A stretch of 63,588 bases of DNA, the filler included, from Neolecta irregularis DAH-3 (lineage: Eukaryota), in assembly GCA_001929475.1 (NCBI GenBank). It is 7 parts of 7 records of this genome, joined end to end, with 100 filler letters (N's around TTAATTAATTAA, not from the genome) between each part and the next. Parts side by side here need not be neighbours in the genome. Positions count along the whole stretch, not along the records: positions 1 to 11,396 come from LXFE01002647.1; 6 more parts are not named here. The stretch is one strand, 5' to 3'. The translations under genes were made by a program, and so were the position numbers. A model generated the notes under the pieces. It did not search any database. It was not told where the DNA came from and saw only the letters and a list, made by a program, of their open reading frames with translations. This document shows positions 745 through 51,914 of the stretch, piece after piece. Positions within the stretch are counted from its first letter, which is position 1. Each line of letters starts with the position of its first letter.

Positions 745-755
745 NNNNNNNNNNA

Positions 756-872
756 ACCAGCTCGTGCGAACCTCGAAGAGCATACACGAGAGGCTGCATT
801 AGGTGACTGAGCGAGGGCAGCAAATAACTGAGGCGAACAGGGACGGTGAGGCACAACTCTACATACAAATCT
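756..872. repeat. Gap-flanked 117-bp duplicate of 68-184 (TRA1 coding sequence) with one substitution
   Basis: Identical to 68-184 except G118/A806 (AGC/AGT, synonymous Ser). Bounded by N gaps; likely an alternate allele or assembly artifact. Confidence 0.85.
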
Positions 873-882
873 NNNNNNNNNN

Positions 883-1430
883 CTTTGGACGAAAGAGTCG
901 AAGCACCGATAACGATCCCGGGTATTCTGATCAGCATCGAGATATGGCTGGCCTGTTGCATGTTACTAAGATATGAGGCTGCAGTACATCAAGATTGCGG
1001 ATAGCGATAAGATTCGCATCTGAGCCAAGAGTGACCTGGCAGTCTGGAAATGACCTGGTCGCATCTGAACCTGGATAGACTATTCTGCGCGCAATGCCCT
1101 TTACCGCGGATTCAAACTGGCAGTGAGAATAGTCGCATATCGCCGGTTACGCACCCGCGGAAGTAGTTCTGCCGGTTCGCGAACCAGGCGATGCGCCAGT
1201 TCCTGGCTGAATCCAATCAAATGGCCTACTTTCACATCCAGTAGATATCGTGCAACGAGAATATTCTCGCGCAGCTGGTCGCGGTATACATACGCATTGT
1301 CGATGCGAAATTCAGATACAAATTCTGCAAATTGGCGTTCGATTCCCGCGAGCGAGTCTTCGCTCTGATCGAGATCCGGCCGGATGCTGGAGTAGAAAAC
1401 CGACGACGAATCCCAGGCAGCGGCAGACAT
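883..1430 (-). CDS. MCM5: DNA replication licensing factor MCM5, 5' part (truncated by gap)
   Basis: YRDQLRENIL...HLIGFSQELAHRLVREPAELLP|FESAV...IRNLD|ASHISMLIRIPGIVIGASTLSSK. Two short GT-AG introns, the first at 1117-1154. Confidence 0.92.
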
Positions 1431-1515
1431 CGTGGGTGGTTTGTCGCACCTGATCCGCCATTTATCTCCTGCCATAATATCTGATCTCCTGCAATAACAA
1501 TATCATCGATCCGCC

Positions 1516-2304
1516 ATGTCTGAACGCAAGGAACACACCCACTCACGTCGGTTTATTCTAATTCTCTAGGTCCTGAATAAATACTATCCCCCAAACTTTG
1601 ATCCCACAAAAATCATCCGCAGAAAAGGCGGCGTCTCCAAAGGCCCAAAGCAACAGACCGTTCGTCTCATGACACCCTTTAGTATGCGCTGTAACTCTTG
1701 CGGCGAGTACATCTACAAGGGAAAGAAATTCAACGCTCGCAAGGAACATTCGGGGGAAGCCTACATGTCTATCTCCATCTTTCGTTTCTATATTCGCTGT
1801 ACTCGTTGCTCTGCCGAAATTACCTTCAAAACAGACCCAAAAAACGCAGACTATACTGCAGAACGCGGTGCTTCGCGTAATTTCGAGCCATGGCGTGAAC
1901 AGCAAAAAGAAGAAGAAGAAGATAAACTCGCCCGTCTTGCAGAGGAAGAAGAAAATGCAATGACAAAACTCGAAAATAAAACTACAAATACAAAACGTGA
2001 AATGGAAATCATGGATGCTCTAGACGATATCCGGACCAGAAATGCACGCAACGAAAGAATCGGTGTCGAAGGTGCTGTTCGCCACCTCGAATCAGAAACT
2101 CAAAGATCTGCCATAGAGACAGAAGAGGATCGTTTAAATCGCCAGGATGCAGAAATCGCCAAAACAGTATTCGACAAAACCATCAAAACTACAATCACGC
2201 CAACCCCTGCCAAATCTTCTATTGCATCATTCAAGAAACCAAAAGCGAAAAAACCAAAGCAAAACGGCGTGGCTCTTGGTATAGTTTTAAAGAAAACAGT
2301 TTAG
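1516..2304 (+). CDS. YJU2: Splicing factor Yju2/Cwf16/CCDC94
   Basis: MSERK|VLNKYYPPNFDP...MTPFSMRCNSCGEYIYKGKKFNARKE...FYIRCTRC...ITFKTDPKNADY. Intron 1531-1569 begins GA. Confidence 0.95.
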
Positions 2305-2356
2305 CGTTAATGCATTAAAGTTTTGTAATATGTAGTATCCATTCCAATAATCCTAT

Positions 2357-5300
2357 TTATATCCTATTATACATGACCATAAACGACCGAATCAAGCGAC
2401 CCAACTCATCCATAAAGGGTCCATCCCAGCAAGAGACTTTGGGTTTACTGCAAGAGAAATCAAATCGATGATTGTTTGATTAGCGGGAATGTTTGGTTTC
2501 GCCACTTGGGAAAGAGAAACAGCCCTCCGAACAACCATATCCACATTCGTCGCCACGCAATCACGGAGCTGTGGGCTATCGGCTACCGGACGGTGCTGCT
2601 GAGTGAACCAGGTACTATAAAAATCAACTGAAGAGTTTTAAATGATGGACATACATCAATTCATCCCGGACAAAGATGCAAAGATACTGGTCAAGCTCAA
2701 ACTAGAAGTGTTGGTGAAGAATCTTTGAAAATGATCATACTTGAGGTTCAGTCAAACATTTGGCGATTGCCATCAAGGCAAACGAAAATATTCCTTCAAT
2801 TCCCACAGGTCCCATGAAATTTTGGACATTTGATGTAAATCGGAATGGAACCGCTTCCGAGAGATGAAATACCGGATTGTTGGGTGCCATAGCTACTTGT
2901 AAGGAACTATAGCTTGTCCGCATACATGGCAACAGCTCTGATGTCCAGATATTTCCGGTGGCTCTTGAGACAGAAATCTTGTGCGGAAACCGATTGCCGA
3001 TATGCATGACGTAGCACATAAAGGTGAAAGTGGCATATTGATAACAAAACTGCTTTCTAAATAGCCAGTAGTCTTCAAAATGTCCATATGTCCGCCGTAC
3101 GTACTAATCGTTAACGCCAATAATCGAGGCAAGTTACATCTGTCAACATGCTTGAAGAGACCATTGACTTTTGTATTTCTTCCAGGATCTCAATCTTCTC
3201 AAAGATGAGATCTTGAGGCTAAGAATCAGTACAAGACCCTCAGGACGAACAAACAGCTTGTTCGTTGGTGAACGCATTGACTTTCTGAGTGTAAAACTTG
3301 AGAGGATCATCTTTATGCATGCCGGTTTTGTGGCAATATTCTTCGTAAATTCCTTGAAACGAAACAAACGATAGATCATCTTGAATGATTCGAATATGGG
3401 GAGCGAGTGGTACTGCTGTTGGGAGATTGTACTGAAGGTTTCGACGACGGCTTTCTCTTTTCGATGACAAAGCGCTAGCCATATTAGAGGAAAATAACTA
3501 GAGAGCAGTTACCTATTAAGGATCCGGAAAAATTGTACTATTCGTTCCTCCCTCCTGCAATGACGTGCTGCAGGATACTGGACATGAAATGGATGTTGAC
3601 TTCCATCGTGCCCTCGAATCGTAAGTCGACGATAGCAAATGCCGTTCCCCCGAACAACTTCCAATGTAGGTAGAAACCTCAAGATTTTGATGAAGTCGTT
3701 ATTGTTATCCTTGTGCTATGACAATAAGCCCTGGAACTAGCAAACGATCTTGACCAAAAGGTATTGTCCAGGAACTTCAATGTCGTCAAATTTCTGGTAT
3801 TGGAATTCTGTCAAGTACGGACTAACTTGTTCCAGATACTGTTTGTCCTGCCGTTTATCTAAAACAAGTTCAAATCGATCGCGCCATTGACGAAGCCGTA
3901 ATATGTAGGTGTGAAGAGTAAGGTTTTGTTGTATAAAATCTCTTTCAAACGCCGACTGTACGTTTTAAATCCTTACGATCAAATAGAAATTACCTTTAGC
4001 GATTTCGGCACTACCGTTTCCGAAAAACGCACGATATTAGCTTCTGTAGCTGGCGGAAGATTTGAATCTTCAGTCAAAGTCACCGCACGGCCAACATACT
4101 AGTGGTAAGAACAGAGGCTTTAATGTCAAATACTTGAATTGCATCGTTGAGAAGAGCAACCGTCAAACGATATGCATCTTCGTCAGCTGGACACTTCAGC
4201 CGTTGTTGAATTTGATCAACCATTGTCTCCATGGATAAAGCCAATAGCGGAAATGCCGTTTTCAATATAGCCATGATCTCGTCAACATGTTCCCATGGTT
4301 GTCGGGTCTGAATTTGAACACTCTTTGAAAGGGGTGATTCTGTGCGAGCACCATTGTGCATAGCCTGTACTGCTAAATGTTAGAATTTATAGGATTATTG
4401 TGGGCCATACAATCTGAAGGGGACTGTTCGGAAGATAATTCAGCGGGATTTGGTCCATTGGTCTCGTTGCCAAGATAATTTTGATTTGATTGGACGGGGG
4501 AAGTTTCTACTTTGACTATCGGGTCACTGGTAGAACGGCCTGATCGCGCCGTTGCATTCTGCGCGGCAGCATACGCTTGCTTCTTGATTATGGTGTAATC
4601 TTCCTTTGTCGTGCGAAGTTGGAAATGCAAAGCCTGTTTATTAGCGCATCCAAAACATAGCCAATACCTGGGGATAACTTTTGGCAATTTTGATGAGAAT
4701 TTGTCTAGCATAGCGTGCTTCTTTATGGGATAGTGATGTTAGGAGTTGTGGTATGAACGTAATCCAGTACCAAACCGGCACTTCCCCTTTATAAGACTCC
4801 CATCCTTTAGCAATGTTTCCTACTTGGTCGTCGAGGCTTAGGAGCCATAATACACGATTGAGGAGTTTTCTCGACTTTTTATTCTTATAGATTCCAGCGG
4901 CTTGGAGGTAACAACTGACAGCATGACATGCCAGGGTAAGGTCCTCGGGGTTTTCTTTAAACCTACGATCATTATATCGACCCCACTCAGCCCAAGCCTT
5001 CCCAAGAGTGATATCAATTTGAATGGCCGTCGCAAAAGCTTGACTTGCTTCATCTTTCATCTTCAAAGCCGCAAGAAACATTCCTTTGAGAGTGAAAAAC
5101 TCTGCTTTCTGCTGAACACCGAAATAAACGAGATTAGTGTTACTAATCACATCAAGTCCAGTGCTTAATTCTGCAGGGTTTTGGTAGTGGCATTTGGCTT
5201 GTTCGCGGAGCTTGAGGAAAGCTTCTTGAATTTCAATGTTCGGCAGAGTGTAAATCTTGGTTAGTTGATTGATACACACTCCAGGAAGCTGATGTTTCCG

Positions 5301-50742: not shown

Positions 50743-51914
50743 ATGGACATTGCCCCGCTGCACGTCCCCGTGGCCCGCAGGCTGCAGACGCTGGTAAGCG
50801 CCGCGCTAGCCGCTCCCGGCTAACCCCTGCTCGGCCGTGGTGTGGCACGCCGTCGCGCTCGCCTTCTTCGCAAGCCTCTTCTTCGTCTGCTGCGCCAATC
50901 CCCTCCTCTGGCCCGTACCCTAACCCTAACCCTAACGACCCTCGCTAACCCCAGGCCCTCCTCCTCTACCTCGTCCGTCCCTCCTCGATTCTCTGCTCAC
51001 CCCAGATCTACTGCGCCAGGGACGATGCCTTTGAGACTGGCCGTCTCCGCAGAATTGCATGGCTGCGCGCACTCCCGCTGTGGTCCTGCTACGCCCACTA
51101 CTTTCCTCTCACCCTCCTCAAGTCAGCCCCCCTTGATCCAAATCATATTTATATACTCGGCTACCACCCGCACGGCATCATCTCCCTCGCTGCCTTTGGC
51201 AATTTCGCCACAGAGGCCACCGGCTTCAGCTTGCTCTTTCCCGGCATCACAAACACTCTCCTCACCCTCGCCTCAAACTTTCGCATCCCGTTCTACAGAG
51301 ACTATATCCAGTTCCTCGGCATTGCTAGCGTCTCCCGCTCCTCCTGCGAAGCTCTTCTCCAGCGCGGACCTGGAAACGCAATCACCATCGTCGTGGGCGG
51401 TGCTCAGGAATCTCTCCTTTCCAAACCAGGCACTCTCAATCTCGTCCTGCGCAAGCGCCGCGGTTTCATAAAACTCGCTATCCGCACTGGCGCCTCCCTC
51501 GTCCCTGTTTTGAGCTTTGGCGAAAATGGTAATCTTTCAGCTTCTCCAAATCTCACCCAAGAACTCTACACACAGGCAGACAATTCCCCAAACTCTTGGG
51601 TCTACTGCCTCCAAACATCGATGAAAAAACTCTGCGGCTTCACTGTCCCCCTTTTTCACGCCCGCGGGGTATTCAACTACGACTACGGATTAATGGTACC
51701 TTTTATTCAAACATCATTAACCATGCAGCCCTGGAGACACCCTGTCACCACTGTTGTTGGCAGACCCATCCCCGTCCAGAAGGCTGATCGGCCAACAGAA
51801 GATATGGTCAACCAGGTCCAACAACTCTATATCGCTGAACTCGTCCGTATCTGGGAGGATGGCAAGGATAAGTACGCTCCTGGTTATAAAACAGACTTGC
51901 GCATCGTCGAGTAA
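50743..51914 (+). CDS. DGA1: Diacylglycerol O-acyltransferase (DGAT2 family)
   Basis: APLHVPVARRLQTL|AVVWH, YFP, GYHPHG, VVGGAQESL, RRGFIKLA, VPVLSFGEN. Five introns (the first ends in CG) and an 18-nt microexon at 50955-50972. Confidence 0.93.

Follow-up and report, generated by a model that had tools for sequence, protein, structure and literature searches.

The YJU2 locus of Neolecta irregularis

The window, meaning the whole stretch of 63,588 nucleotides of Neolecta irregularis DAH-3 sequence that was analyzed, carries a gene for the splicing factor Yju2 whose neighbors are TRA1 and the divergently transcribed MCM5. The features discussed here are listed below with the evidence for each; X1 and X2 are two sequencing runs that are described in the following section.

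1431..1515, no strand: spacer of 85 nt that separates the start codon of YJU2 from that of the divergent MCM5 (minus strand, ATG at 1430)
1516..1530, plus strand: YJU2/CWC16 coding exon 1 (MSERK, ending in AAG), from sequence, homologue N-termini and the X2 joint
1518..1519, plus strand: rival GT donor within the start codon, unused; removal of 52 nt would leave Met-Ser-stop
1526..1527, plus strand: rival GC donor, unused; removal of 44 nt would shift the frame and leave 6 residues
1528..1536, plus strand: 5' splice site AAG/GAACAC, with 4 of 9 possible U1 pairs and no +5 G
1531..1569, plus strand: phase-0 GA-AG spliceosomal intron of 39 nt, from the X2 joint and the lack of a variant in X1
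1547..1552, plus strand: two internal GTs, giving introns of 23 and 19 nt, out of frame
1557..1562, plus strand: predicted branch site TCTAAT, whose A at 1561 occupies position 31 of the intron and leaves 8 nt to the 3' end
1567..1569, plus strand: TAG acceptor, an in-frame stop after 17 residues upon retention
1570..2304, plus strand: second coding exon of YJU2, with 244 residues plus the stop and the Pfam domain Saf4_Yju2, from a profile and the alignment to human YJU2
1684..1686, plus strand: downstream ATG, the start of the public protein P0002 (206 residues), from which 43 residues are absent

Exon 2 encodes a member of the Saf4_Yju2 family (Pfam E 2.4e-71), and its product matches human YJU2 (E 1e-54) far better than Saf4/YJU2B (1e-14), which bears out the gene identity given in an earlier note on this DNA; the role in the first splicing step that was ascribed to Yju2 there likewise agrees with the accessible text of PMC8022279. 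The alignment to human YJU2 starts at human residue 6, so that exon 1 must provide five residues, and among the best 119 of 5207 homologues 113 start with M[SA]ERK. Removal of the GA..AG segment yields a 249-residue Yju2 with this conserved N-terminus. The public gene model is thereby corrected: the 43 essential residues with which Yju2 begins are missing from P0002, whose start at 1684 lies downstream of a further in-frame ATG at 1669. A paralogue or processed copy of YJU2 was considered and rejected, since the assembly gives one match only and the gene is single copy.

Three side observations were made. The first residues are changed or missing at the exon 1-exon 2 junction in six public Yju2 proteins (P0071, P0110, P0120, P0103, P0104 and P0077), which suggests that first introns have been mis-called in other fungi. 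One X2 transcript contig bridges the 85-nt MCM5-YJU2 spacer and covers both genes, and their 5' UTRs therefore abut or overlap. Finally, window positions 745-882, between two 10-base N gaps, repeat positions of about 70-180 and are probably a gap-filling artefact.

DNA and transcript contigs at the intron

Both runs, which come from one study, were compared with the assembly over 883-4900. X1, which is DNA-like, forms a single gapless contig over 883-3975 with 7-8 differing letters, none of them in 1531-1569, and base 1532 is therefore A. X2 contains 14 intron-sized joints of 33-41 bases and X1 none, for which reason X2 was taken as RNA, though labelled 'DNA?'. Thirteen of these joints are GT-AG introns of MCM5 and TRA1 on the minus strand, and the fourteenth omits 39 bases, connecting 1530 to 1570. 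Three bases at this joint are ambiguous (repeat AGG) and allow four registers, AG..CT, GG..TA, GA..AG and AA..GG, of which only GA..AG has a G at +1 together with a YAG end; the other registers, as well as a minus-strand intron in the MCM5 5' UTR, were rejected because their ends are not sensible.

The depth of X2 over the intron drops in two bins by an amount that matches 39 uncovered bases, so no X2 contig keeps the intron. No retained or alternative YJU2 form was found among the X2 contigs, which drop rare forms, and X2 thus documents the presence of the spliced form at contig level rather than the efficiency of splicing. Within about 4 kb, 5 listed positions distinguish X2 from the assembly and 3 covered sites distinguish it from X1; it is a third haplotype, of which only the spliced sequence is seen and the donor letters are not visible.

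YJU2 therefore contains a real, spliced GA-AG intron, one of several in the Neolecta genome, as the earlier note had maintained for this gene: the genomic A is present in X1 and exactly 39 bases are skipped in X2. An assembly error at 1532 was rejected on the strength of X1, which reads A and not T there, and the joint between 1530 and 1570 places the MSERK exon in the mRNA, ruling out, for the spliced form, a transcript start downstream of exon 1.

Donor choice in the YJU2 intron

The donor is strong on its exon side (AAG|G) and weak on its intron side (GAACAC), and a predicted U2-type branch site lies at the distance that is usual for this genome, judged against 406 predicted introns. The two upstream rivals, GT-1518 and GC-1526, pair slightly better with U1 (5 of 9) than the GA donor (4 of 9), and their joints are absent from those listed for X2. 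Counted from each candidate donor, the branch A would fall at position 31 with GA, at 15 and 11 with the two internal GTs, and at 36 and 44 with GC-1526 and GT-1518 respectively. The previous survey of rival donors had rightly set aside the internal GTs as too short and out of frame, the resulting 23 and 19 nt being below the shortest predicted intron of 30 nt, but had overlooked GT-1518 and GC-1526.

The GA cut gives 249 residues, and the alternatives only short peptides: 2 residues for GT-1518, 6 for GC-1526, 13 and 13 for the internal GTs, and 17 for retention, where translation ends at the in-frame TAG (1567-1569) that had correctly been noticed at the end of the insert. Every failed outcome thus stops early and the UPF1 family is present, a pattern expected by chance for a TAG-ending phase-0 intron. 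Since TAG ends 189 of the 406 predicted GT-AG introns of the Neolecta genome, the in-frame stop is unremarkable. Folding revealed no RNA structure that bridges the splice sites; 195 of 200 shuffles folded better than the region itself.

GA and GC donors elsewhere in the genome

Two further GA-AG introns, in genes outside splicing, are supported by homology. In the eIF3c gene (G000:C955:27080-27117, plus strand) the two exons meet at residues that are consecutive in the yeast protein, and an alternative GT 4 nt further on would lose residues, with the alignment being weak downstream. In STE11 (G000:C955:16247-16288, plus strand) reading through the intron corresponds to an exact 14-residue gap in the SAM domain. 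Both lie on one contig, 11 kb apart, and read AG|GAAAGT. The context AG|GAA is therefore shared by all three GA donors, in non-splicing genes too, and the intron side of YJU2, GAACAC, is weaker than the GAAAGT of the other two. We read GA donors as a trait of this genome rather than a one-off.

A simple ab initio gene model was run on 410 kb, comprising the window and fetched contigs partly picked for named genes; it was trained on GT donors and gave one equal low prior to 14 other dinucleotides. It called 430 introns: 406 GT-AG, 18 GC-AG, 2 GA-AG (YJU2 and eIF3c), 2 with decoy donors and 2 with non-AG ends. The interval 1531-1569 was chosen by the model unaided. Its ends were exact in 10 of 13 RNA-shown introns, the STE11 GA intron was read through, and a GA-AG intron suggested for HOP2 was not among its calls. 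Outside the two pre-selected cases none of 428 calls had a GA donor, and with at least one known miss (STE11) the census gives no unbiased GA rate.

The predicted introns are tiny (median 37 nt, shortest 30, with 3 of 408 at 50 nt or more), and donors are degenerate throughout the genome, a G occupying +5 in 40% of 408. Pairing with U1 is no better than that of the YJU2 donor in 68 of 406 donors, and 26% of the GT donors are preceded by AG. For 368 of 406 introns the predicted branch A falls at position 25-34, and the minimum is 16. GC-AG introns make up 4.2% (18/430), set beside shares of 1.0% reported for fungi (PMC7072748) and 1.85% for Ganoderma (PMC11590231) in the accessible parts of those papers. 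Five other splicing-factor genes contain 14 predicted introns, of which 12 are GT, one is GC (SLU7) and one is doubtful and low-scoring. The predicted GC-AG intron in SLU7, which encodes a second-step factor, lies at G000:C164:10882-10916 on the plus strand. Predicted GT-GG introns were also observed on the plus strand at G000:C3081:20195-20228 and, in HOP2, at G000:C4284:1067-1100, and in DGA1 (window 50794-50833) the predicted intron is GT-CG or GT-TG, depending on the prior.

The YJU2 intron position in other species

Metagenomes were scanned with a pattern that requires Ser as TCN and an insert of 31-91 nt, to which intronless genes, MAERK starts and other lengths are invisible. The scan identified 99 loci with an intron near the YJU2 junction, none with a GA donor and none from Pneumocystis, Saitoella, Schizosaccharomyces or another Neolecta; the same kind of scan of viral contigs gave no matches. 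At 88 loci (65 distinct) a phase-1 intron lies one base further, with GT in 63 of the 65 and GC in 2, and the best matches of these loci, among the 119 homologues only, are mushroom-forming basidiomycetes (Agaricomycete-like). At one fungal locus, L005, an intron occupies exactly the Neolecta position with a GT donor. The remaining 10 of the 99 were set aside: 8 have the intron three codons later (animal-like by eye) and 2 are one base short. The one-base offset between the 88 loci (within L004-L102) and the introns at 1531-1569 and in L005 may possibly reflect an intron slide or parallel gains at AAG|GT. A weak donor is accordingly not seen to be conserved in this sample, which contains no close relatives, with GA in 0 of 99 loci and GT in L005. 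The annotated Yju2 proteins of Pneumocystis and Saitoella have the full N-terminus, in a list in which truncated models would rank lower, and this suggests a GT or GC intron, or none, in those genera.

Splicing machinery and a degenerate Prp18 loop

In U1, U2, U5 and U6 the motifs by which splice sites are recognized are normal, and no variant snRNAs were seen among them; there is one U1 match with a normal 5' end (41 of 209 candidates were scored, so that a second U1 is possible). Loss of Prp18, Slu7, Isy1, Cwc25, SNRNP27, Fyv6 or UPF1 was rejected, as every family is present, and one 116-residue piece of Prp8 looks ordinary in comparison with human Prp8. Some fungi have introns in U6, and the Neolecta U6 snRNA gene (G000:C1963:269-417, minus strand) was observed to contain an mRNA-type GT-AG intron with a branch motif, situated between the ACAGAGA box, which it follows directly, and the catalytic AGC. 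PRP8's RNase H-like domain occurs in several stop-ridden partial copies (G000:C1324, C4326, C1195, C171) in addition to an intact piece (C2136).

At the single PRP18 locus found (G000:C702:2495-3682, minus strand; protein P0122) the loop of the conserved region is degenerate, with N190, W193, V197 and T198 of yeast changed. In a set of 50 homologues, Neolecta Prp18 retains 10 of 18 near-invariant loop columns and 25 of 26 elsewhere, and Saitoella retains 17 of the 18 loop columns. A full-length homologue, P0169, has an equally degenerate loop that represents a separate degeneration, and four low-scoring homologues are truncated or frameshifted at the loop. A wider set, in which 140 of 149 representatives cover the loop region, places Neolecta lowest of 141 with 8 of 15 conserved loop positions; the residues replaced include a Trp and an Arg that are each present in 140/140 and a His present in 139.

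In the accessible text on yeast, deletion of this loop activates non-YAG acceptors (PMC10711555), and loss of Prp18 lowered alternative 5' site use. No paper that links the Prp18 loop to GA donors was found in the literature, nor, with subscription papers largely beyond reach, an account of a divergent Prp18 conserved region in Taphrinomycotina. As a candidate cause the loop suits the non-AG acceptors better than the GA donors, and its decay could just as well be a consequence, short introns having relaxed the need for it. That loop loss underlies the odd splice sites is a tentative idea that we are inclined to doubt. A wild-type Prp18 without its near-invariant loop nevertheless offers a testable cause of relaxed splicing fidelity and may matter more than the YJU2 intron itself.

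Discussion

An essential gene of Neolecta relies on a GA donor with a weak intron side that is preferred over a nearby GT and GC. We think it likely that this donor drifted from GT to GA in an intron whose cut is set by distance and exon pairing and passed by a lax second step, with no regulatory job. The intron would then be an ordinary U2-type intron at an old position, its altered donor being tolerated. Introns this small would be defined across the intron, with the 5' cut set largely by a branch-point distance of about 25-34 nt and also by pairing of the exon-side AAG|G with U5 loop 1 and U1, while the intron-side letters would contribute weakly. Such geometry would rule out the internal GTs, which lie too close, and disfavor the upstream GT and GC. 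The pair between U(+2) and U6 A51, by which the +2 base would be checked at exon ligation, could be dispensed with, and the 8-nt branch-to-acceptor distance probably helps the second step.

The accessible parts of the yeast literature bear on this point: U6 A51 is the partner of U(+2) during exon ligation (bioRxiv 10.1101/212811), mutation of U(+2) mainly impairs this step and not branching (PMC8022279), a U2A reporter is second-step limited (PMC10578475), and Slu7 and Prp18 are dispensable with a branch point close to the acceptor (bioRxiv 10.1101/212811; PMC10711555). In 260 of the 406 predicted Neolecta introns the branch point is 8 nt or less away from the acceptor. We infer a generally lax second step in the lineage, with the degenerate Prp18 loop as a candidate cause. 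The location in a splicing gene would be a coincidence. What counts against drift is that GA is rare even in Neolecta (0/428 beyond the pre-selected cases), that its location in YJU2 could be non-random, and that the intron side in YJU2 is weaker than in eIF3c and STE11.

The earlier note had proposed that the weak donor could form a feedback sensor of spliceosome permissiveness. This regulatory sensor reading is unsupported, given that no listed contig retains the intron (rare forms would be dropped), GA occurs at 0 of 99 metagenome loci, none from a close relative, and is also found in non-splicing genes, and the TAG is unremarkable; in the accessible text, yeast U(+2) mutations mainly affect exon ligation and not branching, the step that Yju2 drives (PMC8022279; PMC10578475). 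Feedback could instead act negatively on the balance of the two steps: the GA intron would stall at exon ligation, and excess Yju2, holding the first-step shape and competing with Fyv6, would lower ligation of its own intron and so cut full-length mRNA, with retention, GT-1518 and GC-1526 all ending in an early stop. Arg4 of Yju2, encoded in exon 1, presumably contacts U(+2), all five alternative outcomes are peptides of 2-17 residues, and the UPF1 and Fyv6 families are present. In the available sections of the respective papers, yeast U2A reporters improve with second-step alleles and worsen with first-step alleles (PMC10578475), Yju2 and Fyv6 bind Syf1 exclusively (PMC11651659), the Yju2 N-terminus is essential (PMC8022279), and less Cwf16 leads to exon skipping in fission yeast (PMC4547733). 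Yet the 99 metagenome loci include no GA, eIF3c and STE11 have GA donors in the same genome without being splicing genes, GT donors begin 12 of the 14 introns predicted for the five other splicing-factor genes, X2 lists no retained contig (contigs drop rare forms), and the rival GT sits in the universal ATG-TC start, where no selection is needed; we regard this feedback as improbable. The fuller proposal, in which an exon-ligation checkpoint naturally loosened through loss of the Prp18 loop and a GA intron behind the five active-site codons of Yju2 together balance steps 1 and 2, seems to us quite improbable; were it true, Yju2 supply would fall when the spliceosome leans to step 1 and rise as it leans toward step 2.

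There is little probability, too, that the weak donor constitutively lowers YJU2 output without feedback, an effect that might be mildly favored or mildly harmful. The weak intron side and the two rival donors would suit such a brake, and the 85-nt promoter common with MCM5 could couple YJU2 transcription to that of MCM5, but the spliced form is the only one assembled, and a natural GA donor in plant SYMRK functions without loss (PMC10668435, accessible text). That the individual sampled as RNA carries GT and the GA allele is poorly spliced, whether through polymorphism or error, we consider very unlikely. X2 is indeed another haplotype whose intron is not shown, and X1 may be the source of the assembly; against this, A is read in both DNA versions although they disagree at 8 other sites, variation per site is about 0.2%, the gene has one copy, and other GA introns exist. 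A template switch of reverse transcriptase over the 3-base repeat AGG, or another non-spliceosomal event, could account for a joint with 3 ambiguous bases but is barely credible, as this is the only assembled form, it gives back exactly the conserved protein, a YAG and a branch site in a good position are present, and the region folds worse than nearly all of its shuffles.

A tolerated, drifted donor remains our preferred reading. The choice of GA over the nearby GT and GC makes the YJU2 intron well suited to the question of the extent to which distance and exon pairing may substitute for GT. Our literature search, with subscription papers and some supplements beyond reach, found no account of a non-canonical donor in YJU2; more GA-AG genes may be listed in supplements to the Ganoderma and Frey-Pucker papers and in 3 of the 15 Fusarium files.

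The following comparisons draw on the accessible portions of the papers cited. Ganoderma lingzhi has 35 GA-AG sites, or 0.038% (PMC11590231), and FGSG_10550 of Fusarium graminearum contains a GA-AG intron (PMC3577648). Like the YJU2 intron, these are U2-type, combine a GA donor with an AG acceptor and were missed by standard gene models; unlike them, the Neolecta intron is 39 nt long, belongs to a genome whose introns are tiny and whose GC donors amount to about 4%, and gates the essential N-terminus of a spliceosome protein. In Eurytemora affinis, as well as Oikopleura dioica, the flanks of GA-AG introns resemble those in Neolecta, with AG before the donor and an A after it, but GA exceeds GC there and a variant U1 has been proposed (PMC7072748), whereas in Neolecta GA is far rarer than GC (18 GC and 2 GA called among 430, with 3 GA known) and the single U1 match has a normal 5' end. 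Intron 12 of SYMRK in Trema orientalis parallels the YJU2 case in that the GA donor is confined to a lineage, is spliced and functional, and belongs to an important gene (PMC10668435); the SYMRK donor went through a stage with a conserved GC, while comparable YJU2 introns are mostly GT. The yeast U2A reporter bears the same +2 substitution, a defect in yeast and natural in Neolecta (PMC10578475). Mutants of the conserved region of yeast Prp18 show that loss of the loop relaxes fidelity at exon ligation, as demonstrated on 3' sites (PMC10711555), and this loop change is mutant in yeast and wild type in Neolecta. SUS1 (PMC3201863) and cases of unproductive splicing of splicing factors (PMC4379411), examples of autoregulation through weak or non-canonical introns, likewise have a non-consensus intron that lies near the 5' end of a gene for RNA processing and brings in a stop when retained, but in those cases retention, regulation or conservation is documented, and the likeness of YJU2 to them lies in sequence features only. 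GA-AG introns are a known rare kind, and the YJU2 case adds another.
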